A model generated the notes under the pieces. That model was not told the origin of the DNA. It made no database searches and worked only from the letters and a program-made list of their open reading frames with translations. Of a stretch of 64,000 nucleotides of DNA, positions 25,547-60,378 are shown in pieces. How positions within the stretch are numbered: position 1 is the first letter of the stretch; each line of letters starts with the position of its first letter. This DNA comes from an uncultured Candidatus Saccharibacteria bacterium. GTDB taxonomy: Bacteria; Patescibacteriota; Minisyncoccia; Phycocordibacterales; UBA12088. Location: the NCBI GenBank assembly GCA_964567265.1, contig CAZMLK010000001.1, positions 262,574-326,573 on the forward strand, read 5' to 3'. A program made the position numbers and the translations under genes.

Positions 25547-25547
25547 G

Positions 25548-36034: not shown

Positions 36035-38953
36035 ATGAGCATCACAATCACAAAGCGTGACGGCACGCGAGAACTATTCGACGCCGATAAGATCAACCAG
36101 TCTATCGCGCGCGCATGCGAAGGCCTTCCTGAGAAGGAGTCTTTGGTGATGCAGATCGCCTCAGAGACGCGCCTCACGATGTACGACGGCATGACGACGG
36201 AAGAGATGGATCGCGCCACCATCGACGCAGCTGTCCAGAACATCAAGGACGATCCTGCCTTCGACAAGGCCGCGACACGCCTTCTCCTCAAGACCATCTA
36301 CCGTCGCGCGCTCGGCGACTTCACCACGCACGAGGAGCTGAAGCGCCTCTACCGCGAGCAGTTCGTCGCCTATATCGAGAAGGGAGTCGCGCTCTCGCTC
36401 CTCGACAGCCGCCTCCAGAGCACCTACGACCTCGTCCGCATGGCCGAAGCCATCAATCCGGAACGCGACGAGCTCTTTACGTACACGGGCCTCGATACGC
36501 TCCTCAAGCGCTATTCGATCCGCGAGCACGGCGAGAAGCCGCTCGAGCCGCCGCAGTACGTCTTCATGCGCATCGCGATGGGCCTCGCGCTCAATGAATC
36601 CAATCCGAACGATTGGGCAATCCGCTTCTATGAGAAGATGTCGAAGCACGAGTACATCGCGGGCGGCTCGACCAACATCGGCGCCGGAACCACGAAGCCG
36701 AAGCTCTCGAACTGCTTCCTCATCGACATGCAGGACGACATGGAGAACATCTCCAAGTGCGTCGCCGACACGCTCTTGATTTCCAAGGCGACGGGCGGCA
36801 TCGGCATGACGGTCACCCGCATGCGCGCGAACGGCTCGCCGCTAGGCGCGTCGAACTCGGTCTCATCCGGTCCCGTCCCATTCCTCCACATCATCGACTC
36901 CTGCATCCATGCGATCGTGCGCGGCGGCAAGAAGAAGGGCGCCCTCTGCTTCTACATGGAGCCATGGCACCTCGATATCGATGACTTTTTGAACTTGAAG
37001 CAGAACGCGGGCGATGACTATCGCCGTACCCGGACCGCGAATACCGCCGTCTACATTCCCGACGAATTCATGCGCCGCGTCCGCGATGACGAGATGTGGT
37101 ATCTCTTCGACCCGAAGGAGACCTATGATCTCGTGGATCTCTATGGCGCCGCATTCGCGAAGCGCTACGCGACCTACGCGCAGATGGCAGAAGCGGGGCA
37201 TCTCCGCCTCTGGAAGAAGCTCCCGGCTGCTGAATTGTGGCGGAAGATCGTCGTATCCCTCCAGACCACCTCGCATCCGTGGATCACTTGGAAGGACACT
37301 ATCAACCTCCGCGCCCTCAACAACAATACCGGCACCATCAACGGATCGAACCTCTGCACCGAGATCACGCTCCCGCATGACCGCAACAACACGGCCGTCT
37401 GCAACCTCATCTCGCTCAACCTCGCGCGCCACATCCGGAACGGCGCCATCGAATGGCAGAAGCTCGAGCAAAGCGTGCGCCTCGGCATCCGCCAGCTCGA
37501 CAACCTGATCGACATCAACGTGCTCCCGATCCCGGAGGCCGTGAAGTCGGACAGCGAGAACCGCGCGATCGGCATGGGGGTCATGGGCGTCGCCGATGCG
37601 CTCGAGCAGCTCGCGCTTCCGTACGACTCCGAAGGTGCATACGATTTCGTCGACCGCATCATGGAGTTCGTGAGCTATATGGCGATCGATGAATCGACCC
37701 GCCTTGCCGAAGAGCGCGGCAACTACGCGAATTTCGAAGGTTCAGGCTGGTCGAAGGGAATGGTCCCGGTTGATACCGTCGGCCTCCTCGAGCTCGATCG
37801 CGGCCTTCCGGTCACCGTCAATAAGGCGAGCGCGCACCGCGGACTCGACTGGAACGTCCTCCGCGAGAAGGTGAAGAAGGGCATGCGGAACGCGACTCTG
37901 CTCGCGATCGCGCCGAACGCGAACATCGGCCTCGTCGCCGGAACGTCTCCGGGCATCGATCCGCGCTTCACGCAGATGTTCAGCCGCAGCAAGTACTCGG
38001 GGAAGTACATGGAAGTGAACCCGAACCTCGTGCACGCGCTCCGCGCGCGCGGCCTCTGGGAGAAGGTGCGTGACCGTATCCTCGAGGAGCATGGCGAGCT
38101 CACCAACATCGATGAGATCCCCGATGACATCAAGGCCGTCTACAAGACCTCGTTCATCCTTCCTGCGAACGCATTCATCGAGGTCGCTGCGCGCGCGCAG
38201 AAGTGGGTGGACCAGGCGATCAGCCGCAACATGTACCTCGCGACCCGCGACACCGACGAGACGATGAACATCTACATGAATGCATGGGAGAAGGGCTTGA
38301 AGACCACCTACTACCTCCACATGAAGCCGCGCCACACCGCCGAGCAGAGCACGGTCAAGGTCAACAAGTCGGTCCTTGTCGGCAAGAAGGGCTTCGGCGT
38401 CCTTACGGAGAACGAGAATGGAGATGTGCTCTCGCCGGTCGGATTCGCGCAGGTCTCTCTCGAGATGCCGGTCGCAGCGGGACGCGGTGAGATGAACGAA
38501 TCAACTGCGCCTGAACCGGAGCCCATGGCACCACCCGTCCCGACGATCCCGCAGCCGACTCCGCTTCCGGAAATCCCGATGCAGCCGAAAGGCCCAGCAC
38601 CGGTGACGCCGAACGCAGCAGGATTCGGCGCAGTCACACGCACGCCGGAGCGTCCGCTCATGAGCGTCGAGGATGCGATGTCGTTCCCGCTCGAACAGAA
38701 GAACGTGGTGACGGATGCAAAGAAAGGATTCGGCGCAGTCGCGACCGCGCCAATCGCTCCGATTGCCGCAGTCCCGCATTCATTCAATCCGCCACAGGCT
38801 TCGTATACGCCGCCGCAGCCCCGCGCAGAGACGCAGTCATTCAGCCAGCCGCAGGTCCGGCCCCAGACTCAGGTACGACAGCCGATCCAGGATCGCAATA
38901 CCGATGACCTGGTTGATCCGAATGAACTGAATGTTTGCGACTCTTGTCAGTAG
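36035..38953 (+). CDS. nrdA: ribonucleoside-diphosphate reductase alpha subunit, class Ia, with a long Pro/Gln-rich C-terminal extension
   Basis: N-terminal ATP-cone, catalytic NLCTEI, and a C-terminal CDSCQ redox tail. GGGAG SD upstream of ATG 36035. Confidence 0.95.
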   Translation: MSITITKRDGTRELFDADKINQSIARACEGLPEKESLVMQIASETRLTMYDGMTTEEMDRATIDAAVQNIKDDPAFDKAATRLLLKTIYRRALGDFTTHEELKRLYREQFVAYIEKGVALSLLDSRLQSTYDLVRMAEAINPERDELFTYTGLDTLLKRYSIREHGEKPLEPPQYVFMRIAMGLALNESNPNDWAIRFYEKMSKHEYIAGGSTNIGAGTTKPKLSNCFLIDMQDDMENISKCVADTLLISKATGGIGMTVTRMRANGSPLGASNSVSSGPVPFLHIIDSCIHAIVRGGKKKGALCFYMEPWHLDIDDFLNLKQNAGDDYRRTRTANTAVYIPDEFMRRVRDDEMWYLFDPKETYDLVDLYGAAFAKRYATYAQMAEAGHLRLWKKLPAAELWRKIVVSLQTTSHPWITWKDTINLRALNNNTGTINGSNLCTEITLPHDRNNTAVCNLISLNLARHIRNGAIEWQKLEQSVRLGIRQLDNLIDINVLPIPEAVKSDSENRAIGMGVMGVADALEQLALPYDSEGAYDFVDRIMEFVSYMAIDESTRLAEERGNYANFEGSGWSKGMVPVDTVGLLELDRGLPVTVNKASAHRGLDWNVLREKVKKGMRNATLLAIAPNANIGLVAGTSPGIDPRFTQMFSRSKYSGKYMEVNPNLVHALRARGLWEKVRDRILEEHGELTNIDEIPDDIKAVYKTSFILPANAFIEVAARAQKWVDQAISRNMYLATRDTDETMNIYMNAWEKGLKTTYYLHMKPRHTAEQSTVKVNKSVLVGKKGFGVLTENENGDVLSPVGFAQVSLEMPVAAGRGEMNESTAPEPEPMAPPVPTIPQPTPLPEIPMQPKGPAPVTPNAAGFGAVTRTPERPLMSVEDAMSFPLEQKNVVTDAKKGFGAVATAPIAPIAAVPHSFNPPQASYTPPQPRAETQSFSQPQVRPQTQVRQPIQDRNTDDLVDPNELNVCDSCQ

Positions 38954-38992
38954 CGATTCAAATAAGAAAACTACCAATTAATCCAAAGGCTT

Positions 38993-40012
38993 ATGATCCT
39001 CGGAAAACCACGTGAGAAAGACATGTCGCTCCGGCCCATCCAGTACCAGTGGGCGTACGACCTGTACAACCAGGCGGTCGCGAACACTTGGTTCCCGCAC
39101 GAGATCGCGCTCGGCGAGGATCTCCGCGACTGGGAGACCATGACCGAGGATGAGCGCTACGCAGTGACCTTCCTCCTCAGCTTCTTCAATCCGGCTGAGC
39201 TCATTGTGAACCGCTCGCTCGCGCTCGGCCTCTATCCATATCTCCGCGCGCCAGAGACGCACATCTACCTCGCGAAGCAGATGTGGGAGGAAGCGAATCA
39301 TGCGGTCGCCTTCGAATACGTGCTTGAAACATTTCCCGTCGACCGCGAGAAGGTGTTCAACCAGCACGCAGAAATCCCGTCGATGATGGCGAAGGAAGCA
39401 TTCCTCCACAAATATTTGGAGCGGATGACGGATCTCAATCTCGACATCACCAGCGTCGCAGGCAAGCAGGACTTCGTACGCAACCTCGTCGCCTACAACA
39501 TCGTGATGGAAGGCATCTGGTTCTATTCCGGCTTCATGGTCGCGCTCTCGTTCCGCCAGCGGAACCAGCTCCGCAACTTCGGCTCGATGGTTGACTGGGT
39601 GCTCCGCGATGAATCCCTGCACCTCAAGTTCGGCATCAACATCGTCCTCACCGTCCTTGAAGAGAATCCGGAGATCGTGACGCAGGAATTCGCGAACGAG
39701 ATCCAGCAGATCATCATCGAGGGCGTGCAGATCGAATCGAACTACAACCGCGATCTCTTCCCGCGCGGCATCCTCGGACTCAACGCAGACTACGTGAACC
39801 AGTACGTGCAGTATGTCGCCGACCGCCGCCTCGAGGAGCTCGGCTTCCAGCCGCACTTCAAGGTCACGAACCCGGCGAAGTGGATGTCGACCGCGACGGA
39901 CGTCCTCGAGCTCGTGAACTTCTTCGAGTCGCAAAACACCAGCTACGAAGTCGATGTCCGCGCCCACAAGGCAAGCGACGCGGCCGAAAAGGAGCCGGTA
40001 TCAGCGGAGTAG
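38993..40012 (+). CDS. nrdB: ribonucleoside-diphosphate reductase beta subunit, class Ia
   Basis: Ferritin-like di-iron ligands (EANHAVAFEY ... EGIWFYSGF) and the radical-site region. Confidence 0.95.
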   Translation: MILGKPREKDMSLRPIQYQWAYDLYNQAVANTWFPHEIALGEDLRDWETMTEDERYAVTFLLSFFNPAELIVNRSLALGLYPYLRAPETHIYLAKQMWEEANHAVAFEYVLETFPVDREKVFNQHAEIPSMMAKEAFLHKYLERMTDLNLDITSVAGKQDFVRNLVAYNIVMEGIWFYSGFMVALSFRQRNQLRNFGSMVDWVLRDESLHLKFGINIVLTVLEENPEIVTQEFANEIQQIIIEGVQIESNYNRDLFPRGILGLNADYVNQYVQYVADRRLEELGFQPHFKVTNPAKWMSTATDVLELVNFFESQNTSYEVDVRAHKASDAAEKEPVSAE

Positions 40013-44255: not shown

Positions 44256-44286
44256 GAAGCCGGCGCGTGAGCGCCGGCTTTTTCTA
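44256..44286. terminator. bidirectional terminator
   Basis: AGCCGGCGC gtga GCGCCGGCT followed by TTTTTC. It lies between convergent genes. Confidence 0.6.
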
Positions 44287-45297
44287 TTTCTGAAGCGAGA
44301 AGTGGCGGAGCGCGCGGTACATTTCAATCACGGAGCCACCAAATGTTGTCTCATGATAAGGGAGACCTTCCGCCTCACAGAACCGCTTTACTATCTTCTG
44401 CGCTTTTCCGAGGTTCGGCCGGGGCAAGTATGAGAATAGATGGTGCTCGATCTGGTAGTTGAGGCCGCCGAGCGCGAGGTCGGTAAGAGGTGATGCATAG
44501 ATATTGCGCGTGCAGATGATCTGCGTCCGATAGGTGACCTTCTCGTCTGCCCCAAGCACCTCCTCACCCTTGTGGTTCGGCGCGAACGAGAACCCCGCAT
44601 ATGCGCCGGCGACGAGCATGGTCACGATGAGGAACGCGATGCCGAGCCAGATTCCCAAGCTCGCGAAGATGATCCAGAAGAGGAAAACGAAATGAATCCC
44701 CATGAGTGCAAGCTCGAAAAGACGGATGGGGCGGAACAAGGTCACCCATGAAAGCGGAATGCTTTTGAGGACGTAATTGAAGTACGCAAGCGGCATGAAC
44801 AGGAAGAAGTACCAGTGCTGGTGCGGCAGGACGTACTTCCGGTACCATGGGCCGCGCGTCGCAAGCTGCTCAGCGGTGAACACAAGCGGGAGATCGATAT
44901 CCGGATCCTCGCCGATCTTATTCGTGTTCTTATGGTGCTCGTTATGGCCGGTGTACCAGAAATCGAGGCTGATGCCGAGACCGAGCGCGTACACGAGCGA
45001 TCCCACCCAGGTATCGGCAGTCTGCGACGAGAACACTTGGTGGTGCGCGATATCGTGCCCGAGGAAGCCGAGTTGCATGAAGGTGATGCCGAGAAACACC
45101 GCATTCAGGAGCTGGACGATGACATTATCGACCAGTGCGATGCAGACAAAGGAAAGTAGAAGGCAGGTGAGCACGACCACGGTGTAAAGGAAATAGAATC
45201 CCGGCCGCTTCCTGAAGAGGTTCGCCTGCTCAAGATCAGCCTTGAGACGGAGATAGGGCTCCATCGATACCGTCGTCGTGTGTGAAGGAGCATTCAT
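44284..45297 (-). CDS. membrane fatty acid desaturase (three histidine boxes)
   Basis: HDIAHH, HNEHH and HQIEHHLF histidine boxes. Start at MNAPSH is uncertain; the ORF is open to 45333. Confidence 0.85.
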   Translation of the reverse strand: MNAPSHTTTVSMEPYLRLKADLEQANLFRKRPGFYFLYTVVVLTCLLLSFVCIALVDNVIVQLLNAVFLGITFMQLGFLGHDIAHHQVFSSQTADTWVGSLVYALGLGISLDFWYTGHNEHHKNTNKIGEDPDIDLPLVFTAEQLATRGPWYRKYVLPHQHWYFFLFMPLAYFNYVLKSIPLSWVTLFRPIRLFELALMGIHFVFLFWIIFASLGIWLGIAFLIVTMLVAGAYAGFSFAPNHKGEEVLGADEKVTYRTQIICTRNIYASPLTDLALGGLNYQIEHHLFSYLPRPNLGKAQKIVKRFCEAEGLPYHETTFGGSVIEMYRALRHFSLQK

Positions 45298-45397
45298 TGC
45301 GCACCAAGTATACAGGTTTAGGGAACGATGCACTATTATTCATGAGGAAATCCGGTCACGCGCCCCTTGCGGACTTTTTTGCTATAGTGAGCACGAA

Positions 45398-47443
45398 ATG
45401 GCAGGATTCAAACTCAAATCAAAATTCGAGCCGGCAGGTGATCAGCCGAAAGCAATCGAAGGCTTGGTGAAAGGCCTTGAAAAAGGAATGGAACACCAGA
45501 CCTTGCTTGGCGTGACCGGTTCTGGGAAGACGTTCACCATCGCGAACGTGATCGAGAAGCTGCAGAAGCCGACCTTGGTAATCGCGCACAATAAGACGCT
45601 GGCGGCGCAGCTGGCGCAGGAATACACGGAGTTCTTCCCGGATGCCGCCGTGCACTACTTCGTTTCGTACTATGACTACTACCAGCCGGAGGCCTATGTG
45701 GCGGTATCTGATACCTATATAGAGAAGGAGGCGCAGATCAACGAGGAGATCGACCGGCTTCGCCATGCGGCCACCCAGGCGCTTCTGACGCGGAAGGATG
45801 TGATCGTGGTCGCATCCGTCTCCTGCATCTATGGACTCGGAAGCCCGGTCCAGTACGAGAAGGTCCATATAAAGGTGGAGAAGGGAGCGGCGCTTTCTCG
45901 CGCCGAGCTCCTTCGGAAGCTCGTGGGGGTCTATTTCACGCGCACGACCGCGGATATCCTCCCGGGCACGTTCCGCGCACGCGGCAACATGATCGAGATC
46001 ATGCCGACGTCGGAGCGGGTCATCTTCCGCATCGAGTTCTCGGCCGATGTCGTCACCGGTATCTCCAAAATAGACCCGCTCACGCGCGCGATCACCGAAA
46101 CGCCCGATTCCTTCTTCCTCTTCCCGGCAAAGCACTATGTGACGCCGGAGGATGAGCGCGGCCGCGCGATCGCGGATATCCGCATCGAGCTCAAGGATCA
46201 ATTGAAAAAATTCGAAGCCGAAGGGAAGATCATCGAAGCGGAGCGCTTGAAGCGCCGTACGAGCTACGATCTCGCGCTTATCAAGGAAGTGGGCTACTGC
46301 AACGGCATCGAGAACTATTCGCGCCATTTCGACGGACGCGCTCCCGGCGAGCCGCCCTATACGCTCCTCGACTACTTCCCGCACACGAAAGACGGCAGGG
46401 CGGACTTCCTGACCGTCATCGATGAGTCGCATGTCACGATCTCGCAGATCGGCGGCATGTATGCCGGCGATCGCTCCCGGAAGACCACGCTCGTGGACTA
46501 TGGATTCCGCCTTCCCTCGGCAATCGACAACCGCCCGCTCAATTTCGATGAATTCTACGCGCGCGTAGGGCAGCGCATCTACACATCCGCGACGCCGGGT
46601 AATTACGAGCGCGAGCACTCCGAGCAGGTCGTCGAGCAGATCATCCGCCCGACCGGACTTCTCGATCCTGAGATCGTGCTCCGTCCCGTGACGGAAGCAG
46701 GCGCATACAAAGGCCAGGTTGCTGACTTCATGGCTGAGACTGCTGCTGCGGTGACGCATGGCGGCCGTGTGCTCGTGACCACACTCACCAAGAAGATGGC
46801 GGAAGACTTCAGCGAATACCTGAAGGAAAAGGGCATCAAATCGGAATATCTCCATAGCGATGTCGAGACTTTGGACCGCATCACGACCTTGACCGAGTTC
46901 CGCAAGGGCACCTTCGATGTGCTCGTTGGCGTGAACCTCCTCCGTGAAGGCCTCGATCTTCCTGAAGTCGAGCTCGTCGGCATCTTCGATGCGGACAAGG
47001 AAGGCTTTCTCCGCTCTGAGACCTCGCTCATCCAGACCATGGGCCGTGCCGCGCGTAATATCGACGGCCGCGTGATCCTCTACGCGGATACCATGACCAA
47101 CTCGCTCACGAAAGCGATCGACGAGACCAATCGCCGCCGCAAGATCCAAGCGGATTACAACCAGAAGCACGGCATCACGCCGCAGTCGATCAAGAAGACC
47201 ATCAGCGACATCACCGAGCTCCTCCAGAGCGAACGCAAGAAGACAGCGCAGGCGCTCCTCGCAATCGAGCAGGATGCGTTCAAGGGAGATGCCGAGGCAT
47301 TCATCCGAGAGAAGAAGCTCCAGATGCAGGAAGCAGTGAAGCTGCTCGACTTCGAAACCGCGGCCGTCCTTCGTGATGAGATCGCCGTACTCGAGGGCGG
47401 AGACGCGAAGCCGAAAAAGAGCGGCACCTATCGGCGTCGGTAG
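45398..47443 (+). CDS. uvrB: excinuclease ABC subunit B
   Basis: GVTGSGKTF Walker A, helicase motifs and a C-terminal UVR domain. ATG at 45398. Confidence 0.95.
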   Translation: MAGFKLKSKFEPAGDQPKAIEGLVKGLEKGMEHQTLLGVTGSGKTFTIANVIEKLQKPTLVIAHNKTLAAQLAQEYTEFFPDAAVHYFVSYYDYYQPEAYVAVSDTYIEKEAQINEEIDRLRHAATQALLTRKDVIVVASVSCIYGLGSPVQYEKVHIKVEKGAALSRAELLRKLVGVYFTRTTADILPGTFRARGNMIEIMPTSERVIFRIEFSADVVTGISKIDPLTRAITETPDSFFLFPAKHYVTPEDERGRAIADIRIELKDQLKKFEAEGKIIEAERLKRRTSYDLALIKEVGYCNGIENYSRHFDGRAPGEPPYTLLDYFPHTKDGRADFLTVIDESHVTISQIGGMYAGDRSRKTTLVDYGFRLPSAIDNRPLNFDEFYARVGQRIYTSATPGNYEREHSEQVVEQIIRPTGLLDPEIVLRPVTEAGAYKGQVADFMAETAAAVTHGGRVLVTTLTKKMAEDFSEYLKEKGIKSEYLHSDVETLDRITTLTEFRKGTFDVLVGVNLLREGLDLPEVELVGIFDADKEGFLRSETSLIQTMGRAARNIDGRVILYADTMTNSLTKAIDETNRRRKIQADYNQKHGITPQSIKKTISDITELLQSERKKTAQALLAIEQDAFKGDAEAFIREKKLQMQEAVKLLDFETAAVLRDEIAVLEGGDAKPKKSGTYRRR

Positions 47444-47523
47444 GAGACACTGTCCACACCTAAGAGAAGAGGGTGGAGCAAAGGGCTATATACTGGTCCT
47501 ATACTCGTCAATAATCTTTTCAT

Positions 47524-48732
47524 ATGCTTAAAGCGGGAGTCGGCGTAAGTAACGGCAGTGATGCATTTCAAGTAGGTACGGAAGCAGCAACAGAAGCGCT
47601 CAAGCATGCCGACGGAGGCGACGTCAAAATCGCATTCGTGTTCGCCTCGGTCCAGTACGATCAGGAGCAGGTCTTGCGGGGCGTCGAAAGCGTCTTCCCC
47701 GGGGCGCATGTCGTCGGCGCATCGACTGCTGGAGAAATCTCGACAGCGGGTCCTTCGAAGCAGAGCGGCGTGACGGTCATGGCAGTGAGGGCCGACCAGA
47801 TCAAGATGTTCGTCGGTACGGGCACCGGCATCAAGGATAATCCGCATGCGGTCGGCGTTTCCGCAGCAGAACAGGTCAAGAAGGCCGCCGCAGGCGAGGA
47901 GCTCAAATTCGGCATCATGTTCGCGGACGGGCTTTCCGGGAATGGCTCGGAAGTCCTTCGCGGAATCCTTCAAGTGCTCGGCTCGCATTTCCCGGTCGTC
48001 GGCGGTTCTGCCGCTGACGACGCGCGGTACAAGCAGACATTCCAATACCACGGGGGTTCCGTGCTCACGGATTCCGTCGTCTTCATCGGCTTCTCCGGTC
48101 CCGTGGAATTCTCGTTCGGAGTGAATCACGGCTGGGTGCCGGTCGGACTTCCGAAGCGCGTCACGAAGGCAGAGGGTGCGATTCTGAAAGAGATCGATGG
48201 ACAGCCTGCGCTCAGGTTGTACGAGGATTATCTCGGCGTCGAAGAGATGGAGCGCATGAAAGAGAAGACGCTTGGAGATCTCGCGCTCTCGTACCCGCTC
48301 GGCATCAAGCAGGAAGGCATGGATGAACTCCTCCTCCGCGCTCCGTTCTACGTGAATACCGACGGATCTATCGTTTGCGGCGCTGAGGTGCCGGAGGGTG
48401 TCGAGGTCCGCCTGATGGTCGGCAGCAAGGAGGAAGCGATCACAGCTGCGGCCACTGCAGCGACGCACGCACAGACGCAGCTCGCGGGGGCGGCTGACCT
48501 GGCGCTCATATTCAGCTGCCATGTCCGCGACAAGCTTTTCGCCAATCGGGAGAAGGGCAAGGAGGAGATCGACGCGATCCAGAAGGTCATCGGCACCGAG
48601 GTTCCGCTTGCAGGATTCTATACCTACGCAGAACAGGCGCCGATCGGCGGCGAGTCTCGAAATGTCGAGAAGTGTAACCCGTCATTCCACAATGAAACAG
48701 TCGTCATCTGCCTTCTCAGGGAACAAGTGTAG
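47524..48732 (+). CDS. FIST domain protein (FIST_N plus FIST_C, stand-alone)
   Basis: Layout and sequence pattern FVFASVQYD...GASTAGEI...GGSAADD...FSCHVRDKLF resemble FIST sensory domains. The overlapping antisense ORF 47428-48522 was rejected. Confidence 0.65.
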   Translation: MLKAGVGVSNGSDAFQVGTEAATEALKHADGGDVKIAFVFASVQYDQEQVLRGVESVFPGAHVVGASTAGEISTAGPSKQSGVTVMAVRADQIKMFVGTGTGIKDNPHAVGVSAAEQVKKAAAGEELKFGIMFADGLSGNGSEVLRGILQVLGSHFPVVGGSAADDARYKQTFQYHGGSVLTDSVVFIGFSGPVEFSFGVNHGWVPVGLPKRVTKAEGAILKEIDGQPALRLYEDYLGVEEMERMKEKTLGDLALSYPLGIKQEGMDELLLRAPFYVNTDGSIVCGAEVPEGVEVRLMVGSKEEAITAAATAATHAQTQLAGAADLALIFSCHVRDKLFANREKGKEEIDAIQKVIGTEVPLAGFYTYAEQAPIGGESRNVEKCNPSFHNETVVICLLREQV

Positions 48733-48753
48733 GTCTGCGCTCATTGCTAATCA

Positions 48754-50022
48754 TTGCCAATAGGAACACCGCGTATGCAACAGGGATATAGCCGCATGCA
48801 AGAGCTGGTACTCGCATCTGCGCTTACCACGCTGGTTTTAGTCGGATTCCTTACCTTGAGCGGTCTCGGGGTTCCTTTTTTCAAAAATGCAGATTCGTCA
48901 CCATCGGTCGGTGTCTATTTGAGCGTGCCGATGCAGCTTTCGACGGGAAAAGAAATCGCAAATGGCGCAACCCTCGCGTTCGAAGAGCGAGGATACAAGG
49001 CAGGTACCGCGGACGTCCAGCTCCTGGTGAATGATGATGGTGATGAGACGGGCAACTGGACCACTGAAAAGGAGGATGGCATCGCGAGGAGCGCAGCCGC
49101 GAACCCGAAGGTCGTCGCCTATCTCGGTACCTTCAACAGCGGCGCCGCGAAAGTCAGCATGCCGATCCTGAATGAGGCCGGCATCGTGCAGGTGAGTCCG
49201 GGAAATACCTGGCCAGGGCTCACGAAACCAGGATTCCTTCCGGGAGAGCCGGGCATCTTCTATCCGACCGGCGTCCGGCACTATTTCCGCGTGAGCCCGA
49301 CCGATGATCTCCAGGGTCCTGCAGGCGCCCTGTGGGCGAAGAATCTCGGATTCAAGACCGTGTTCATCATCGATGATAACGACGTATATGGGAAAGGGAT
49401 CGCAGATCTTTTCCAGGATAGCGCGAAGGTGCTCGGGCTTTCAGTTCTCGACCACATGCACTTCGATCCCATGGCGGCAAACCAGCAGGAACTGATTGAT
49501 GCTGCGGTAACCAAGGCGCTCGCGCTGAAGCCTGATGTCATTTATTACGGAGGAACGACTCCAAACGGCGCACCGGAATTCATCGCGAAGCTGCGCCAGG
49601 CCAGCTCGACCGCCGCTTTCATGGGTCCTGACGGCATCCTCGAGCAGGATTTCATCGACCGTACCGGCAACGACTATGCAGAAGGTGTGTATGCGACCAC
49701 GGTGGGCGCGCCGCCCCTTGCTGTCGATACTCCACGGGCCCGTGCCTTTAGCGAAGCCTATCAGAAGCGTTTCAGCACACAGGCAGGGGTTTTTGCCGCA
49801 TTCGGTTATGAAGGTGCAGAAATAATCCTCGATGCGATTCAGCGTGCACCGGAGAAAACGCGCGCCGCCGTCTTGCAGGAAGTACGGGCGACCAAGAATA
49901 TCGCAGGCCTCTTCGGACCGCGTGCCTTCGATCAAAATGGCGATACCACGCTCACCCTCCTGTCCGGAAATGTCGTGCACGGCGGCCGATTTGAATTCGT
50001 AACGAAACTCCTCGTTCCATAA
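48754..50022 (+). CDS. periplasmic binding protein, LivK/LivJ (branched-chain amino acid) family
   Basis: N-terminal TM/signal segment and a type I periplasmic binding fold (Peripla_BP_6-like). The start could also be 48775 or 48796. Confidence 0.8.
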   Translation: MPIGTPRMQQGYSRMQELVLASALTTLVLVGFLTLSGLGVPFFKNADSSPSVGVYLSVPMQLSTGKEIANGATLAFEERGYKAGTADVQLLVNDDGDETGNWTTEKEDGIARSAAANPKVVAYLGTFNSGAAKVSMPILNEAGIVQVSPGNTWPGLTKPGFLPGEPGIFYPTGVRHYFRVSPTDDLQGPAGALWAKNLGFKTVFIIDDNDVYGKGIADLFQDSAKVLGLSVLDHMHFDPMAANQQELIDAAVTKALALKPDVIYYGGTTPNGAPEFIAKLRQASSTAAFMGPDGILEQDFIDRTGNDYAEGVYATTVGAPPLAVDTPRARAFSEAYQKRFSTQAGVFAAFGYEGAEIILDAIQRAPEKTRAAVLQEVRATKNIAGLFGPRAFDQNGDTTLTLLSGNVVHGGRFEFVTKLLVP

Positions 50023-50025
50023 CCT

Positions 50026-51936
50026 ATGCCGACTGAAGATCAGAAAGTAATACCGCTCCGGCGGCGCCTATCGTTCCAGCTCGGCGTCCCGTTCGTGGCG
50101 TTCATCATGCTGGTCTTCGCGACTGTACTCGCGGGATCATACATCTCGATCCAATTCGATGAGGCGACCATCGCCGGCCAGCCGCGCCGCCTCAGCGAGG
50201 GTGCTGCGAACGAGATCGTCTATTTCTTCAGGAGCCTGGAGGGTAGTCTCAAGGTCGTCGCTGAGAGTACTTCGCCGACGCTTGCAATTTCCCCGATCGA
50301 AGAGACGTATGTCCGGAACCTTCTGCGCGAGAACCCTACCATACTCGAGGTCATTTTCTTCAATGCAAACGGCGAGCGCGTCAGCCGCATCGCGGGACCC
50401 ACCATTCCTGATGTGCTCGAGAAGAATGCTTCGGACACCGATGACGCCGATGTCATGGATGATGCGCATTCTGGGGAGGAGCGCTTCTTGAAGCCGATCC
50501 CGTCAATCTATGACACATCGATCGTGCACTGGATTTTCCCCATTCGAGATCAGCAAGGCGTCGCGAAAGGCTCGCTCCGCGCCACCGTCGATCTCTCGGG
50601 ACTGTGGAGCATCCTCGCGAAATACCGCGAACGCAACGTTGCGACATTGTTCATCGCTGACGACGAAGGTTCCATCATCGTCTCGAACACCAAGCTTCCG
50701 GAATCGGCCTATGAAGAAAGCACCCGTGCACAGATTCGTGCCCGCATGCAGTCGAAATCGGAGACCACGGCGTACCAGGGGATCCTCGGAGGTGATGTCG
50801 TCGGGTTCATAACGCCGATCGCACCCACTGACTGGAGCGTGGTCGCGGAAGTGCCGACGAACAGCTTCGCGGACCGCCGCGCGCATACGACGACGACGAT
50901 CGTCGGCGTGTTCGCAGCCCTCATCGTCCTCCTAGTGTATGAGCTCTACGCCGTACGGAATATGCTTCTCAGGCCTCTTGATGTCCTCAGCCGTACAATT
51001 TCAGAACTCGCAAACGGCAATTATAAGGCGGAGGCGCGCGTCGGCGTCGACAATGAGTTCAAGTCGCTCTCGCTCGTACTCAATGGCATGGCGCGGAACG
51101 TCGATAAGGCGACTTCAAGCATTGTCGTCCGGCTCCAGGAGCTGCTCGGGGAACAGGATCGGAGCTCCAAGCTCTTGATTCGTCGCGACCTCGAGCTGGT
51201 GAAGGCGAATGAGAAGCTGCGCCTTCTTGATGATGCGAAGTCTGAGTTCGTCTCTGTAGCCGCGCATCAGCTCCGGACGCCGCTCTCAGCCGTCAAATGG
51301 GCGCTCCACATGCTCCTGGGTGGAGACCTCGGCGCGCTCGAGCTCCGCCAGAAGGAAGTCCTTTTGAAGGCCGCGCAGAGCAATGACCGCATGATCAAGC
51401 TCGTGAATGACCTCCTCAATGTGGACCATATAGAGAGCGGTAAATCCGAGTACCTGTTCGTGCCCCTCCAGGCGTCCGATCTCATCGGGAGCGTCCTTGC
51501 CGAGCTCCGGCCGATCGCCGAGCAGCGCAGCATCCTTCTTAATTTCGACTCAGGGAGCGCGGTCTCCGGCGAAGTCCTTGGCGATCGCGACAAGCTTCGG
51601 GGCGTATTCCAGAATTTGATAGAGAATGCGATCAAATATACACTGAAGGGAGGTACCGTCACGGTGAATCTCTTCGAGGAAGAAAATCTCGTCCGCGTCT
51701 CTGTCGCGGACAGCGGCATCGGTATCCCTGCGAGCGACCAGCCGAAAGTATTCGGCAAGTTCTTCCGGAGCAAGAACGCTATCAAGATCGCTACAGATGG
51801 CACCGGTCTCGGCCTTTTCATCGTAAAGGAAATTATCAGCCAGCATCACGGCAAGATTTGGTTCGAAAGCATGGAAGGCGTCGGCACGACGTTCCACGTC
51901 TCGCTTCCGAAGCTTGTCCAAAAGCCGAACGCGTAA
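50026..51936 (+). CDS. sensor histidine kinase with a periplasmic Cache-like domain and HAMP
   Basis: TM - roughly 250-aa periplasmic domain - TM - HAMP - HisKA (H-box HQLRTPLSAV) - HATPase_c (N, G1 and G2 boxes). Confidence 0.85.
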   Translation: MPTEDQKVIPLRRRLSFQLGVPFVAFIMLVFATVLAGSYISIQFDEATIAGQPRRLSEGAANEIVYFFRSLEGSLKVVAESTSPTLAISPIEETYVRNLLRENPTILEVIFFNANGERVSRIAGPTIPDVLEKNASDTDDADVMDDAHSGEERFLKPIPSIYDTSIVHWIFPIRDQQGVAKGSLRATVDLSGLWSILAKYRERNVATLFIADDEGSIIVSNTKLPESAYEESTRAQIRARMQSKSETTAYQGILGGDVVGFITPIAPTDWSVVAEVPTNSFADRRAHTTTTIVGVFAALIVLLVYELYAVRNMLLRPLDVLSRTISELANGNYKAEARVGVDNEFKSLSLVLNGMARNVDKATSSIVVRLQELLGEQDRSSKLLIRRDLELVKANEKLRLLDDAKSEFVSVAAHQLRTPLSAVKWALHMLLGGDLGALELRQKEVLLKAAQSNDRMIKLVNDLLNVDHIESGKSEYLFVPLQASDLIGSVLAELRPIAEQRSILLNFDSGSAVSGEVLGDRDKLRGVFQNLIENAIKYTLKGGTVTVNLFEEENLVRVSVADSGIGIPASDQPKVFGKFFRSKNAIKIATDGTGLGLFIVKEIISQHHGKIWFESMEGVGTTFHVSLPKLVQKPNA

Positions 51937-51953
51937 GCGGAACAATATATTTC

Positions 51954-52778
51954 ATGGAGCCCCAGAAAAAGACAACCATACTCGTCGTCGAGGACAATGA
52001 CCTTCTCGGGGATATTATCGTGACCAAGCTGACTGGAAGCGGATACGCCGTCTCGATTGCACGCACAGGGCCTGATGCGCTGAAGCGTATCCAGGAAGAA
52101 GGCTTCGACCTCATCCTTCTCGATATCGTCCTCCCCATGATGAGCGGCTACGAGATCCTGGAGCATATGCGTACGGATCCGCGCACCAAAGGCATCCCGG
52201 TCATCATCATTTCGAATTCAGGCCAGCCCGTCGAGCTTGAGCGCTTGAAGGCGCTCGGCGTGAAGGATTACCTGATCAAGGCGGATTTTACCCCTGAGGA
52301 GGTCCTTGGTAAGATCCGCGCGCTCATGGGCGAACCATCGGGCGCGCTCTCCTGGCCGCCTGGGTTCTCGATCCTCCTCGTCGAGGACGATCCTTTCCTC
52401 AAAGAGCTTCTCGGCCGCAAGCTCGGCAGCGAGGTCAAATTGTTTTATGCGGGCGACGGCGAGGAGGCGGTCCGCATCATCGAGGAAAGCCACCCTGATC
52501 TCATACTCCTCGACATCCTCCTTCCGGGCATCGATGGATTCGAAGTCCTGCGCCGGACGCACATGAACGAGAAGAACAAGGATATCATCGTGATCGTACT
52601 CTCCAACTTCAACCAGGCATACGACATTAAGAAGGCCGAAGAGCTCGGCGCGGATGACTATCTCGTGAAATCGAACTTCACCGTCGATGAAATCCTGACG
52701 AAGGTGCGTGAGCATGTCGCTCGCCGCTATCAGGCAAGCACCGCCGCATCGCAGAATACCAAACTCGTCGCAGGGTAG
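51954..52778 (+). CDS. response regulator with two tandem receiver domains and no output domain
   Basis: Two receiver domains, each showing the characteristic Asp and Lys motifs (ILVVEDND...LILLDIVLP; ILLVEDDP...LILLDILLPGIDG). Confidence 0.8.
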   Translation: MEPQKKTTILVVEDNDLLGDIIVTKLTGSGYAVSIARTGPDALKRIQEEGFDLILLDIVLPMMSGYEILEHMRTDPRTKGIPVIIISNSGQPVELERLKALGVKDYLIKADFTPEEVLGKIRALMGEPSGALSWPPGFSILLVEDDPFLKELLGRKLGSEVKLFYAGDGEEAVRIIEESHPDLILLDILLPGIDGFEVLRRTHMNEKNKDIIVIVLSNFNQAYDIKKAEELGADDYLVKSNFTVDEILTKVREHVARRYQASTAASQNTKLVAG

Positions 52779-52846
52779 CGCCCGCAGCCGCACATTGCTA
52801 TACTCGGTGTATACCCCCTCTATGAACAGAGCGGGGATACATTCAT

Positions 52847-55444
52847 ATGCAGGACAAAATCGTCGTCAAAGGCGCGAAAACTCACAATCTCAAGAACGTC
52901 ACGGTAGAAATGCCGCGGAACAAGATGATCGTGATGACCGGGCTCTCTGGATCAGGGAAGTCGTCGTTGGCATTCGACACCATTTTCGCGGAAGGACAGC
53001 GCCGCTACGTCGAATCGCTCTCCGCGTACGCGCGACAGTTCCTTAACCAGATGCAGAAGCCCGATGTCGAGGAGATTACCGGCCTCTCGCCGGCGATCTC
53101 GATCGATCAGAAGAGCCGCTCCAACAACCCGCGCTCGACGGTCGCGACCATCACTGAGATCTACGACTACCTCCGCATCCTCTACGCTCGCGTCGGCAAG
53201 GCATACTGCCTCCAATGCGGCCATGAGATCGTGAAGCTCTCGAACGAGGAAATGATCAAGATCGCCGAGAAGATCGTCTCCGAAGGCAATTTCACGGGCG
53301 ACAAGAAGAAAGTCCTCGGCGTCGAATATACGGACGCGAAGCTGCGCATCTACGCGCCTCTGATCGTTGGCCGGAAGGGCGAGTACTACCAACTCCTCTA
53401 TGATCTGCTCGGCAAGGGATATGAGCGCGCGAAGATCGACGGCGAGGTCATGAACCTCCGCGAGAAGATCGAGCTCGACCGTAACAAGCGCCACGACATC
53501 GACATCCTCGTCGATGAGATTTTCGTAAGCGAATTCACGGAAAACGCGAAGAACGCGCGGGAGCGCCTCTCGGAAGGCCTCGAGCTCGCGCTTGAGGAGG
53601 GAAGCGGGCTCGTCCGGCTTGAGGGGCCGGATGGCGTCGTGAAGACATTGTCTGCGAAATTCATCTGTCCGATAGACGGCTCGTCGTTCGTGGAGATCGA
53701 GCCGCGCCTTTTCTCCTTCAATTCACCATATGGCGCTTGCCCGGAATGTAACGGGCTTGGCACGGTTGGTTTTTTCAACATGGACGTCTGTCCGGTGTGC
53801 GAAGGCAAGCGCCTCCGCCCCGAAGCCTTGAACGTCTTTATCGGCGGCGACAATCCGAACAGGGGCGGCAAGGGCATCAATATCGTCGACTACACCTCTC
53901 TCTCGATCAAAGATGCGATGGACACCATCCTGGGGCTCAAGCTCACGAAGAAGGAGCAGGAAATCTCTGGTGTCGTGCTGAAGGAAATCATGAATCGTCT
54001 CCAATTCATGATCAACGTGGGCATCGAGTACCTGACCCTCGACCGTCGCGCGAACACCCTCTCGGGTGGTGAGGCGCAGCGCATCCGCTTGGCTTCGCAG
54101 CTCGGCAGCGGCCTCGTCGGCGCCCTTTATGTCCTCGACGAACCGACCATCGGACTTCACCAGCGCGACAATGACCGCCTCATCCAGACGCTTCTCAAGC
54201 TCCGCGATCTCGGCAACACCATCATCGTTGTCGAGCACGATGAAGACACAATCTACGCGGGCGACTATCTCATTGATATCGGCCCCGGGGCGGGCGTCCA
54301 CGGCGGGGAGATCGTCGTTGCTGACTATCTTGAAAAACTCCTGACCGCAAAGAAAAATGTGTCAGGCTCGCGCACGCTCGCGTATCTCCGCGGCGAGAAA
54401 TCGATCCCGATTCCTTCTGAGCGCCGAAGCGATGACCGCGGCATGCTCCGCATCCGGAACGGGAACGCCTTCAACATTAAGAACCTCGACGTGGATATCC
54501 CGCTCGGGCGGCTGATTACGGTCACTGGCGTTTCTGGCTCCGGAAAATCGACATTCCTCTACGAGATCCTCGACAAGAATCTCCGTGCGCGGCTCGAGAA
54601 GAAGTACCGCACGAACGATCTCTATAACGTCTCTTCGTTCACGGGCACCGAATACGTCTCCCGTGTAGTCCTTATCGACCAGTCCGCGATCGGCCGCACG
54701 CCTCGTTCGAATCCTGCTACCTATACTGGCGCCTTCACTTATATCCGCGAGCTCTTCGCGGAAACATCAGAAGCGCGCGTCCGCGGCTGGAAGCCGAGCC
54801 GGTTCTCGTTCAACGTGAAAGGCGGACGCTGCGAGGCGTGCCAGGGAAACGGCGAGATCGCCGTCGAGATGCACTTCCTCCCGACCGTCTATGTGACCTG
54901 CGATGTCTGCAACGGCAAGCGCTTTATGAAAGAGACGCTCGAAGTGCGCTTCAATAAGAAGAATATCTACGAAGTCCTCAACATGACCGTCGAGGAAGCA
55001 ATGAGCTTCTTCAAGGAGATCCCGCAGATTTCAGATCGTCTGAATACGCTTATGGATGTGGGCCTCGGGTATCTCACGCTCGGCCAGAGCGCGACGACGC
55101 TCTCGGGCGGCGAGGCGCAGCGCGTGAAGATCTCTTCTGAGCTCTATCGCCCGCATGTGCAGAAGACCATCTACCTCCTCGATGAGCCGACGGTCGGGCT
55201 CCACTACGACGATGTGCAGAAGCTCATCGATATCCTCCAGGAGCTCGTGAATCGCGGCAATACGGTCGCCGTGATCGAGCACAACATGGACGTGATCAAG
55301 AATGCGGATTTCATCGTCGATATCGGTCCTGAGGGGGGAGTCGGTGGCGGCAACATCGTTGCCAAGGGGACTCCGGAGGAAGTCGCGAGGACCAAGGGCT
55401 CGCACACCGGCCACTATCTCAAGAAAGTACTGGCAAAAAATTAG
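52847..55444 (+). CDS. uvrA: excinuclease ABC subunit A
   Basis: Two ABC ATPase modules ([18 protein letters not shown]), LSGGEAQR signatures and zinc-finger Cys clusters. Confidence 0.95.
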
Positions 55445-56751: not shown

Positions 56752-57993
56752 ATGGAGAAAGCACATCTGGTAAAACGGAAGCTCCCAGACACGCCCGGCG
56801 TGTATTTTTTCCTGGGTCCGCGTAAGAAGATCCTGTACATCGGCAAGGCGACATCGCTCCGCTCGCGCGTGCGGAGCTATTTCGACGCGGATATCGCGGC
56901 CAAGCGGAGCCCGCTCATCGCCCAGATGGTTGCGGAGGCAAAGACCATCGACTTCCGGAAGACCGACTCTGTCCTCGAAGCGCTGATTCTTGAAGCAAAT
57001 CTGATCACGCATTGGAAACCCGCCTACAACACAGACGGCAAGGACGACAAGAGCTTTAATTATGTAGTGATCACGAACGAGGAGATCCCGCGCGTTCTTA
57101 TGGTCCGCGCGCATGAGCTCTATCAGACGTATGAGGAGAGCGAGCTCAAGCGAGTGTTCGGGCCGTTCCCGCATGCAGCGCAGCTCAAGGAAGCCCTCCA
57201 TCTCGTGCGGAAGATCTTCCCGTTCTTCGACACCAAGAAGCCAGTCCTCGCGAACATGACGCCGCACGAGGCAGGGAAGATCCGCTTCAACCAGCAGATC
57301 GGCGTGTACCCGAGCATGCTGTCTTCTGATGAATATGCGCGTTCAATCCGCCACATCATTCTTCTGTTCGAAGGGAAGAAGCCGCTCCTCGTTCGAGAGC
57401 TGAAGAAGGAAATGAAACTCGCTGCCTCGGAGCAGCGCTTCGAAGATGCAGAACGCGCGAAACGCCAGATGTTCGCGCTCACGCATCTTCGTGATATCGC
57501 CCTCATCAAGGAAGACATGGCGGCCGGCCCTGGGGATTTCAGGATCGAGGCATATGACATCGCGCATCTGGGCGGCAAGGCGATGACGGGCGTCATGGTC
57601 GTGGTCGAGGACGGAGTCGCAAAGAAATCAGACTACCGCAAATTTAAGGTTCGCACAGTGGCAGCCTCGAATGACACGAAGGCGCTCAAGGAAGTGATTG
57701 AGCGGCGCCTCGGACACTCAGAATGGCCGCTTCCGAACCTCATAGTCGTTGATGGGGGCCAGGCGCAGATCAACGCTGCAGAATCAGTGCTCGCCACCTT
57801 CGGCTACATGATCCCGGTCACGAGCGTGGTCAAGGATGACAAGCACCGCGCCCGCGACATCATGGGCGACCAGCTCCATCGAAAGCTCCGGGAAAAGGAG
57901 ATCCTTCTCGCCAACGCAGAGGCGCATCGCTTCGCGATCGCCTATCACCGCCTCACAGGACGCCGAGCGCTCATCAGGCCCTCGAACGGATAA
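56752..57993 (+). CDS. uvrC: excinuclease ABC subunit C, short form lacking the C-terminal HhH domain
   Basis: GIY-YIG motifs (PGVYFFLGPRKKILYIGKATSLRSRVRSY), a UVR-like helix (RFEDAERAKRQ) and the UvrC RNase H-like endonuclease domain (AYDIAHLGG...LIVVDGGQAQ). Confidence 0.85.
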   Translation: MEKAHLVKRKLPDTPGVYFFLGPRKKILYIGKATSLRSRVRSYFDADIAAKRSPLIAQMVAEAKTIDFRKTDSVLEALILEANLITHWKPAYNTDGKDDKSFNYVVITNEEIPRVLMVRAHELYQTYEESELKRVFGPFPHAAQLKEALHLVRKIFPFFDTKKPVLANMTPHEAGKIRFNQQIGVYPSMLSSDEYARSIRHIILLFEGKKPLLVRELKKEMKLAASEQRFEDAERAKRQMFALTHLRDIALIKEDMAAGPGDFRIEAYDIAHLGGKAMTGVMVVVEDGVAKKSDYRKFKVRTVAASNDTKALKEVIERRLGHSEWPLPNLIVVDGGQAQINAAESVLATFGYMIPVTSVVKDDKHRARDIMGDQLHRKLREKEILLANAEAHRFAIAYHRLTGRRALIRPSNG

Positions 57994-59664: not shown

Positions 59665-60009
59665 ATGTCAGAACTTGCCAAAAAACACTGCGAAGCGTGC
59701 GAAAAAAAAGGGACGCCGCTGGCGCTCCCTGCTGCCGAGGAATTCCACAAAGAGGTGTCTCTGTGGCACCTCGCCGAGGACGCATCTAAGATCGAGCGGA
59801 CCTTCCATTTCGGCGATTTCGAGGAAGCGATGGAATTTGTGAACGCGGTCGCGGAGCTGGCGGAAACAGAGGGCCATCATCCTGATTTCTTCATTTCCTG
59901 GAACAAGGTCCGGCTCACCCTTTCCACTCACTCCATCAAGGGGCTGTCCGAAAACGACTTCATTCTGGCCGCGAAAATCGACGAAATCCTTCCCCCGCCA
60001 GAACTTTAA
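59665..60009 (+). CDS. 4a-hydroxytetrahydrobiopterin dehydratase (pterin-4-alpha-carbinolamine dehydratase)
   Basis: EGHHPDF signature with the length and pattern of PCD/DCoH. Confidence 0.85.
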   Translation: MSELAKKHCEACEKKGTPLALPAAEEFHKEVSLWHLAEDASKIERTFHFGDFEEAMEFVNAVAELAETEGHHPDFFISWNKVRLTLSTHSIKGLSENDFILAAKIDEILPPPEL

Positions 60010-60051
60010 AATTCTGGGAAGGTATGGTATTCTCTCGAAGTCCGCAGATAC

Positions 60052-60124
60052 GGGCCCGTAGCTTAGTTGGTAGAGCACCTCATTTGCAATGAGGGGGTCA
60101 GGAGTTCGAATCTCCTCGGGTCCA
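60052..60124 (+). tRNA. tRNA-Ala (anticodon UGC)
   Basis: Cloverleaf folded by hand. Acceptor stem GGGCCCG/CGGGUCC with a G3:U70 wobble pair, D-arm GCUU..GAGC, anticodon loop UUUGCAA, T-arm AGGAG-UUCGAAU-CUCCU and discriminator A73. CCA is not encoded. Confidence 0.9.
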
Positions 60125-60126
60125 CA

Positions 60127-60167
60127 AAATACAAAAGCCCTGCCACTTTGGCAGGGCTTTTGTATTT
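60127..60167. terminator. 19-bp perfect-stem hairpin terminator, bidirectional
   Basis: AAATACAAAAGCCCTGCCA ctt TGGCAGGGCTTTTGTATTT. Inner stem of a larger 89-nt palindrome. Confidence 0.7.
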
Positions 60168-60378
60168 CAGTGAATGACCCGAGGAGATTCGAAAGCCGGA
60201 AAACAATGCTCCCGGGGAGCAGTGTTTGAGGCGGGGTCGCGAACACTGAGCAACTCGTGAGCGAAAATGCGCTCGTCAGGATGTTCCAATCACCAATAAG
60301 AACATTTCCTGGAGAAAGCCAAGATGGTAGCATATCTACTATACGTTTTTTATAAGTCGATTTTTCAAATTTTGAAGC

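Follow-up and report, generated by a model that had tools for sequence, protein, structure and literature searches.

A 64,000-nucleotide stretch of contig CAZMLK010000001.1, from an uncultured Candidatus Saccharibacteria bacterium, carries four signalling genes on the + strand between uvrB and uvrA. They encode, in this order, a stand-alone FIST protein, a LivK-type binding protein, a histidine kinase with a dCache ectodomain, and a regulator made of two receiver domains (REC-REC). We call the whole stretch the window and collect the features of the cluster in Table 1. We suggest that the four genes probably form one signalling unit, in which two known accessory-sensor partnerships converge on a single histidine kinase.

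Open reading frames (ORFs) lie exactly where the initial annotation of this DNA had placed the genes, and all four of its domain assignments are right. The spacing of 3–20 nt given there is close to what is measured: 21–42 nt between the FIST and binding-protein genes, 3 nt between the binding-protein and kinase genes, and 17 nt between the kinase and regulator genes. The regulator ORF opens at TTG 51858, overlapping the kinase gene; this TTG is unused in public gene calls, and the true start is almost certainly the ATG at 51954. uvrB is a recurrent syntenic neighbour and stands outside the signalling unit proper. The closest genomic relatives found in a genome scan are metagenome-assembled genomes (MAGs) labelled Candidatus Saccharibacteria and Paceibacteria, and UvrA and UvrB are 81–88% identical to their counterparts in a Saccharibacteria MAG. 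The guanine and cytosine (GC) content of the cluster is 0.57–0.59, matching the surrounding DNA. Acquisition of the cluster as a laterally transferred island was considered and has no support: its GC content is that of the flanks and the synteny with relatives is kept.

Table 1. Features of the signalling cluster and its flanks (window positions; residue numbers refer to the encoded protein)
Feature	Window position	Strand	Protein residues	Basis and remarks
uvrB, upstream flank	45395–47443	+		tblastn and Pfam; recurrent synteny
uvrB–FIST intergenic region	47444–47523	+		sequence reading; two TATACT boxes
Stand-alone FIST gene	47524–48732	+	402 residues	ORF and Pfam
FIST_N	47629–48204	+	36–227	Pfam
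FIST_C	48208–48642	+	229–373	Pfam
Alternative start of binding-protein gene	TTG 48754	+		ORF list
LivK-type binding-protein gene	48775–50022	+	415 residues	ATG start, used in public gene calls
Histidine kinase gene	50026–51936	+	636 residues
Transmembrane helix 1 (TM1)			19–37	hydrophobicity
dCache ectodomain	50137–50898	+	38–291	255 residues
Transmembrane helix 2 (TM2)			292–310	hydrophobicity
HAMP			311–359	Pfam, E 1.4e-5
Conserved coiled-coil motif KLLIRRDLELVKANEKL	51169–51219	+	~382–398
HisKA			404–472	Pfam, E 1.7e-13
Phospho-His H414	51265–51267	+	414	H-box HQLRTPL at 51265–51285
HATPase_c			519–629	Pfam, E 3e-30
REC-REC regulator gene	51954–52778	+	274 residues	ATG start, as in public gene calls
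REC1			9–125
Phospho-acceptor D57 of REC1	52122–52124	+	57
REC2			140–251
Phospho-acceptor D187 of REC2	52512–52514	+	187
uvrA, downstream flank	52847–55444	+		recurrent synteny

Related loci were gathered by a genome scan, by exact-protein look-ups and by a metagenome scan with an alignment of 30 FIST sequences, which returned 504 FIST relatives and from which 80 loci were kept; the loci were annotated by BLAST at the level of ORFs. Collapsing the FIST proteins at 90% identity gave 68 clusters, and the 45 representatives with at least 3.5 kb downstream of FIST are the distinct loci counted below, some of them named by L numbers. In all 45 a histidine kinase comes after FIST and is followed by a receiver protein, the three genes being spaced by a few bases or overlapping. 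The receiver protein is a tandem REC-REC of about 255–325 residues in 42 loci; the three exceptions are a Daviesbacteria locus with three separate single receivers, and L065 and L070 with one short single receiver each. The loci span Saccharibacteria, Paceibacteria and Nomura-, Kaiser-, Taylor- and Daviesbacteria. FIST-kinase-receiver is hence a core conserved across the candidate phyla radiation (CPR, or Patescibacteria). This neighbourhood comparison bears out the co-conservation of the genes: the arrangement recurs in many distinct genomes and is, for that reason, far beyond chance. In full-text searches of one library of papers we found none that joins FIST with Patescibacteria, the candidate phyla radiation or Saccharibacteria.

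The input side of the core is modular. Some partner kinases are bare, some are anchored in the membrane and some bear PAS; others come with a small membrane protein, or carry dCache and come with a binding protein. The majority of partner kinases are short and have no sensor domain. Those of L002 (286 residues) and L011 (291 residues) are soluble, with a coiled coil followed by the dimerization and histidine phosphotransfer (DHp) and catalytic domains; those of L004 and L013 have two transmembrane helices with no loop between them. Since such kinases have no sensor of their own, FIST is the sole candidate input there, as argued for NosK (PMC12570481).

The variant with the small membrane protein is seen in L005 (9204–9476), L006 (424–696) and L014 (7242–7559), where a protein of 90–109 residues with 2–3 predicted transmembrane segments and no Pfam match is encoded between FIST and a soluble kinase, and the kinase has an N-terminal region of about 160 residues without assignment.

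The FIST protein of the window matches Pfam FIST (E 5e-50) and FIST_C (E 8.5e-31), so that the assignment is supported by profile search, and it has no further domain and no transmembrane segment. The initial annotation regarded a stand-alone FIST protein as odd, FIST domains being usually fused. This view does not hold. The published NosP/NahK (NosK) design is stand-alone (PMC12570481, PMC8846402); the 120 best homologues are without exception stand-alone proteins of about 400 residues; and stand-alone FIST genes are also carried on plasmids, beside a soluble kinase in Nostoc or a nucleotide cyclase in Aliiroseovarius. The best named homologues all belong to CPR lineages (Daviesbacteria, Nomurabacteria, Kaiserbacteria, Taylorbacteria, Zambryskibacteria, Paceibacterota), and FIST is about 50% identical between CPR classes. 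Over 30 CPR homologues from several classes the mean column identity is 67% and 69 positions are invariant. Of these, 26 are shared with FIST proteins of Nostoc, a Legionella plasmid and Aliiroseovarius, including a T-x-G-E motif, D165, R335, a GFY.Y.E motif and H389. The alignment-based AlphaFold model of the protein has a mean predicted local distance difference test score (pLDDT) of 90.9, and its best solved match in Foldseek is the FIST domain of human FBXO22 (E 3e-12, template-modelling score 0.52). Searching by sequence retrieved no solved structure up to E 1, and there is no solved bacterial NosP for comparison.

In L001, the closest relative of the window, two tandem FIST paralogues (8001–10401; 65% and 51% identical to the window FIST) precede the binding protein, kinase and regulator.

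The binding protein belongs to Peripla_BP_6 (Pfam E 4.5e-36). Its hydrophobic segment at residues 18–36 probably serves as a membrane anchor or signal sequence. The best matches in the Protein Data Bank (PDB) are the branched-chain amino-acid binding protein 3td9 (1.3e-24) and LivK and LivJ (1e-15 to 1e-11). From the LivJ/LivK structures we take S79, T102, Y150, Y202 and E226 of LivK to be the polar residues that hold the amino acid. Four of these five are kept: S129, T152, Y212 and D293 are the counterparts of S79, T102, Y150 and E226 and do not vary among eight orthologues, drawn from CPR, Actinobacteria and Archaea, while Y202 is replaced by Thr. Thus, judged from the binding residues, an alpha-amino-acid-like ligand is plausible. 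A 13-residue insertion, TWPGLT..GF.PGEPGIFYPTG.R (residues ~148–172; 49195–49240), is invariant and conserved from CPR to Acidimicrobiales and Euryarchaeota, whereas LivK is without it; it is a candidate surface for contact with the receptor.

The distribution of the binding protein follows that of the dCache ectodomain. A binding-protein gene lies directly upstream of the kinase gene in 6/6 FIST-linked loci with a dCache-type kinase and in 0/39 of the others; in those 39 the gap between FIST and kinase is below 450 nt, which leaves no space for such a gene. In five of the six the binding protein is of Peripla_BP_6 and the kinase matches the sensor region of the window kinase over its N-terminal half (L001, L003, L069, L080 and the window itself, L007), the binding-protein gene adjoining the kinase gene upstream in each. 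The sixth, L093 (9201–11966), is an independent example of the same wiring: its kinase has a dCache_1 domain of another subtype, and a binding protein of the ABC_sub_bind family (PF04392) occupies the equivalent position. In neighbour-joining trees of FIST, the kinase core and the regulator, the loci with a binding protein fall in at least three separate places, and each tree makes L069 the sister of L075, a locus without binding protein. Binding protein and ectodomain hence seem to have come or gone jointly, and on more than one occasion.

The pair also occurs on its own. The binding-protein subfamily reaches well beyond CPR: it has 3442 matches at E <1e-10, and identity is about 47–50% in Acidimicrobiales, Caldilineae and Euryarchaeota. 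In Moranbacteria, where the receptor has no kinase domains, in Acidimicrobiales and in Euryarchaeota SM23-78 its gene lies directly upstream of that for a dCache-HAMP receptor, and neither FIST nor ABC genes are present. L101 and L103 (3898–10080) keep the upstream synteny of the window (PGA_cap ... TGT-uvrB) and contain uvrB and the genes for binding protein, dCache kinase and REC-REC, but within 6 kb they have no FIST gene. Altogether, five of five look-ups beyond the FIST-locus set put the binding-protein gene directly upstream of the gene for a dCache-HAMP receptor, FIST being absent from the vicinity; a sixth (L102) gave another complete four-gene cluster, on a contig of 1.03 Mb. Since 39 of the 45 FIST loci have no binding protein and the pair with dCache occurs without FIST, the binding protein belongs with the ectodomain of the kinase and not with FIST. 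The amino-acid-sensing pathway proposed in the initial annotation has to be narrowed accordingly: it is plausible for the binding-protein branch and does not hold for the pathway as a whole.

In the kinase, the dCache_1 match (E 2e-9, 37.8 bits) is under the Pfam cut-off of 45. The assignment is nevertheless supported, because dCache_1 is matched by every one of the 40 best ectodomain homologues from an exhaustive HMMER search (best E 1.4e-33); a PDB sequence search with the ectodomain gave chance matches only. Two signatures are shared by 44 of 45 FIST-linked kinases, whatever the N-terminal part, the PAS kinase of Daviesbacteria being the exception. The first is the H-box H-Q-(L/M)-R-T-P-L. 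The second is a near-invariant segment before the H-box and DHp domain, (K/R)(L/M)L(I/V)RRDLEL.RANE.L..LD..KS.F. In L101 and L103, where FIST is missing, this segment reads TLMKRDEELSRANDRL after drift, which hints weakly, and from a single lineage, that FIST could dock there. The Gln next to the phospho-His is unusual for HisKA; among 24 homologues 16 have Q, 7 have E and 1 has D. We rejected it as a mark unique to FIST-linked kinases, as it recurs in dCache and PAS kinases elsewhere in the same broad subfamily.

The regulator matches Pfam Response_reg twice (1.7e-43) and has no output domain. In all of ten aligned orthologues neither receiver has lost the acidic pair, the phospho-acceptor Asp, the Ser or the Lys, and the segment SNSGQP.E of REC1 is invariant. 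Among solved structures the regulator best matches the REC-REC stem of PleD, over residues 8–258 and thus over both domains. REC-REC is the only regulator encoded with the kinase in 42/45 loci.

Domain content, topology, strict gene linkage and the co-variation of binding protein and dCache carry the proposal of one unit with two inputs; the contacts, ligands, sign of regulation and output in the following scheme are what we propose on top of them.

Step 1: In the cytoplasm the soluble FIST protein would bind a small ligand, like proteobacterial NosP. It would contact the cytoplasmic part of the kinase, raising or lowering its autophosphorylation at H414. This contact is perhaps made at the invariant coiled coil just before the phospho-acceptor helix.

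Step 2: On the outside the membrane-tethered LivK-type protein would capture an extracellular ligand, probably an alpha-amino acid, and dock on the dCache ectodomain, as in BasB-BasT or LuxP-LuxQ. The docking signal would then travel through TM2 and HAMP to the same kinase.

Step 3: The kinase would pass its phosphate to REC-REC as the sole cognate regulator. Lacking any enzymatic or DNA-binding domain, REC-REC must work through contacts that depend on phosphorylation. We suggest that the phosphorylated form works via other proteins, possibly after dimerisation of the PleD-like REC-REC stem.

Each part of this scheme has a known counterpart, and the cluster would be a lineage-specific form of a NosP-like system, to which a dCache input that depends on a binding protein has been added in this Saccharibacterium lineage. 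NosP is a solo FIST-FIST_C protein; it binds a sensor-less kinase encoded next to it and sets the rate at which this kinase autophosphorylates (PMC12570481; review PMC8846402; PMC8738867). In NosP-NahK and NosP-NosK-NosR of Pseudomonas aeruginosa, Vibrio cholerae, Legionella pneumophila and Burkholderia pseudomallei a stand-alone FIST_N and FIST_C protein stands beside a kinase and a regulator, as here; most CPR partner kinases are sensor-less like NosK, and the presumed mechanism is alike. The cluster differs from these systems in its host, a Saccharibacterium, and in a FIST protein far under the equivalog threshold of NosP. Its regulator is REC-REC without a cyclic di-GMP (c-di-GMP) or other output domain, with no histidine phosphotransfer (HPt) relay seen at the loci. 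Finally, its kinase has its own dCache-HAMP sensor, a partner binding protein, the HQLRTPL H-box and the invariant motif before the DHp domain.

The outer branch resembles the systems in which binding proteins signal via dCache-like receptors, namely BasB-BasT of Halobacterium salinarum, LuxP-LuxQ and HptA-HptS (PMC8050422). In all of them the binding-protein gene adjoins that of a two-helix dCache-like receptor, in a unit without transporter genes. BasB, which senses the branched-chain and sulphur amino acids Val, Ile, Met and Cys together with its partner BasT (PMC8050422), is of the same Pfam family, Peripla_BP_6, as the window protein, and LuxQ and HptS are, like the window receptor, histidine kinases. 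However, BasT is no kinase but a chemotaxis transducer, the binding-protein families of LuxP and HptA are different ones, and in the window the interaction of binding protein and ectodomain is deduced from the co-variation of their genes.

Neither LuxQ nor HptS is known to have an extra accessory sensor in the cytoplasm such as FIST. As for the regulator, PleD shares the tandem receivers, but it carries a GGDEF output; its second receiver is not known to be phosphorylated, whereas both window receivers keep the phosphorylation residues. FrzZ of Myxococcus, a dual CheY-like protein, likewise has no output domain; a chemotaxis-type kinase is not involved in the window cluster. The H-NOX-HnoK networks are similar in that a separate small sensor controls a sensor-less kinase serving receivers, some of them without catalytic output (PMC8846402, PMC8738867); H-NOX is however of an unrelated fold and no H-NOX gene is present here. 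The two-input wiring, the CPR-wide conservation, the REC-REC output and the HQ signature of the kinase are thus the differences from the systems described.

Several points weigh against the two-input unit. Protein contact, ligand and phosphotransfer are all predicted from genes alone, and the trees behind the repeated gain or loss are crude. FIST is not obligatory once the kinase owns a sensor, for L101 and L103 have none within 6 kb. The window FIST is 25–33% identical to proteobacterial and cyanobacterial FIST proteins and scores 102.7 bits with the NosP model NF041558 of NCBIfam, far under the equivalog cut-off of 450; its ligand may therefore differ. AlphaFold, run without an alignment on the N-terminal 360 residues of the kinase, gave a pLDDT of 42, which is unusable. 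The kinase has Gln beside the phospho-His in place of Glu or Asp, an acidic residue that HisKA mutagenesis has found to be needed for autokinase activity; Gln might therefore mean weak activity.

The alternative that survives best is a more specific version of the two-input unit, in which FIST is an orthodox NosP that binds haem and senses nitric oxide or haem availability, the cluster being a nitrosative-stress or haem sensor. The match to the NosP model is full-length (model positions 9–353 of 368, E 2e-29), and H389, within the C-terminal HNET motif, is the only His common to all FIST proteins compared, including those of Legionella, Nostoc and Aliiroseovarius. A haem-dependent oxidase is carried by at least one soil Saccharibacterium, for which haem scavenging has been proposed (PMC6031116). 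The O2-dependent enzymes of the window, a class I ribonucleotide reductase and a desaturase, imply that the organism meets oxidants, and the recurrent uvrB and uvrA flanks would fit a link to DNA-damaging stress. On the other hand, the sub-threshold bit score makes the protein, as far as the model can tell, a homologue and not an equivalog of NosP; the regulator is no c-di-GMP enzyme, unlike those of the described NosP systems; substrate binding by FIST is poorly understood according to the review PMC8846402; and the residues invariant in CPR only (H202, C285, C384, R146 and D166) point to a chemistry that other FIST proteins do not share. We give this haem-based reading a fairly low probability.

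These CPR-specific residues may be read further. FIST, the HQ kinase and REC-REC would then be a CPR hallmark module unlike NosP, with a cytoplasmic cue read by H202, C285 and C384 that may be redox, a metal or a host-derived metabolite rather than haem and nitric oxide, with a tandem receiver that directly binds some cellular machine, with a tie to nucleotide excision repair, and, in the lineage of the window, with extracellular amino acids as a further input to the kinase via the binding protein. The tie to repair is drawn because the module stands beside or between uvrB and uvrA, even after rearrangement. Such linkage is seen in about a third of the distinct loci and in different CPR classes: 15 of 43 loci have uvrB upstream of FIST at a distance of at most 1.5 kb, uvrA lies downstream in 12 of 31, and local rearrangement leaves the association in place in L003 (FIST, uvrB, binding protein, kinase, regulator) and L042 (FIST, kinase, regulator, uvrB, uvrA). 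We consider this wider proposal rather unlikely. If true, it would mean that an episymbiont merges host-derived nutrient signals and internal stress signals in one minimal pathway.

It is unlikely that the binding protein is the transport part of a branched-chain amino-acid ABC importer encoded elsewhere, its place beside the kinase being incidental or reflecting a dual role. Its homologues in the Peripla_BP_6/LivK family carry the annotation 'branched-chain amino acid ABC transporter substrate-binding protein', most of the amino-acid-holding residues are kept, and our survey covered 64 kb of a 622-kb contig. Yet neither the 34 large window ORFs that were scanned nor 12 gene tables of homologous loci contain a Liv-type permease or ATPase. 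The NCBIfam model PRK15404 gives the protein 83 bits against a cut-off of 477. The perfect match between the presence of the binding protein and that of dCache, with the pairing also in distant phyla, and the invariant insertion missing from LivK likewise speak against a transport part.

The initial annotation had correctly seen a regulator with two receivers and no output domain, and proposed a phosphate sink or phosphorelay intermediate in place of a final output. The missing output domain is in keeping with this, the three single-receiver genes of Daviesbacteria recall branched pathways, and a second output-less receiver is encoded in the window (20742–21125). A sink, however, presupposes an output regulator in competition and a relay presupposes an HPt protein, and neither an HPt protein nor an output-bearing regulator was seen in the window cluster, the 45 loci or the inspected gene tables; domains of the GGDEF, EAL or HD-GYP type were likewise absent from the neighbouring genes of the inspected loci. 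In addition, the strong conservation of both receivers, SNSGQP.E included, suggests a specific partner surface. We therefore find a sink or relay improbable: REC-REC being the sole regulator with the kinase and no HPt or output-bearing regulator being seen, a terminal adaptor-type output by protein contacts is more likely.

Least probable is that FIST does not regulate the kinase and is linked to it by co-expression only, for example as an enzyme akin to the 'Toblerone-fold' cyclic amide hydrolases. It has many invariant polar residues, and in the second tier of its Foldseek matches stand cyanuric acid hydrolase and barbiturase (E 1e-7 to 1e-4). However, these have template-modelling scores of 0.33–0.39 and root-mean-square deviations of 12–15 Å, for which we rejected the enzyme reading, while the top matches are FIST domains (FBXO22), the tightly spaced gene order is kept in all 45 loci, the partner kinases are otherwise without a sensor, and the NosP precedent shows physical binding (PMC12570481).

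The two-input unit bears on a group whose signalling is little charted. CPR bacteria have very small genomes and few signalling systems, and the cues that they sense are almost wholly uncharted. FIST, kinase and tandem receiver make a three-gene module that is strongly conserved over CPR classes. The window version would be a clear case, provided by nature, of a single kinase served by accessory ligand-binding proteins from either side of the membrane. It further brings to light a LivK-like subfamily that is widespread and highly conserved and whose members, in bacteria as in archaea, always pair with dCache-HAMP receptors, and it corrects an old reading, as the proximity of FIST and an amino-acid binding protein here reflects the ectodomain of the partner kinase and not the ligand of FIST.

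As for expression, the region between uvrB and FIST is the probable promoter of the four-gene unit, judging by its two TATACT boxes. The exact 9-mer CTATACTCG is present in only two copies in the 64-kb window, at 47499–47507 upstream of FIST and at 52798–52806 upstream of uvrA, 17–40 nt before the starts of these genes. It is possibly a local promoter −10 element; the uvrA copy reads TGCTATACT (~52795–52806), resembling an extended −10 box. Having such boxes ahead of both FIST and uvrA suggests separate promoters. A sigma-70 consensus scan gave promoter-like sites no more frequently than in shuffled sequences, a consensus scan gave no terminator between the four genes, and an Rfam scan gave no riboswitch or other RNA within or near the cluster.

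Some other features of the window may be noted. uvrC (56752–57993) lies 1.3 kb past uvrA, so that uvrB, uvrA and uvrC are placed within 13 kb on the same strand. A second two-component pair is convergent: the kinase (19359–20738, +) has two predicted transmembrane segments, no recognised sensor domain and the H-box HEIRSPL, and the receiver protein (20742–21125, −) is single-domain and has no output. The segments 36023–40012 and 44284–45333 (−) encode the large and small subunits of the class I (O2-dependent) ribonucleotide reductase and a membrane fatty-acid desaturase; oxygen-requiring enzymes are thus encoded in a CPR genome. The first part of the window (1–4000) has a GC content of 0.43–0.46 against about 0.57 elsewhere and is possibly foreign or otherwise atypical DNA. 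The gene for tRNA-Ala (TGC) at 60052–60125 is overlapped on the opposite strand by an ORF of 221 residues (59668–60333) which has no Pfam match and is probably no gene. Last, a MacB-type permease (MacB_PCD and FtsX) and an HlyD-family adaptor are encoded at 23604–27350 (−), an efflux- or export-type system in a host that is expected to be without an outer membrane.

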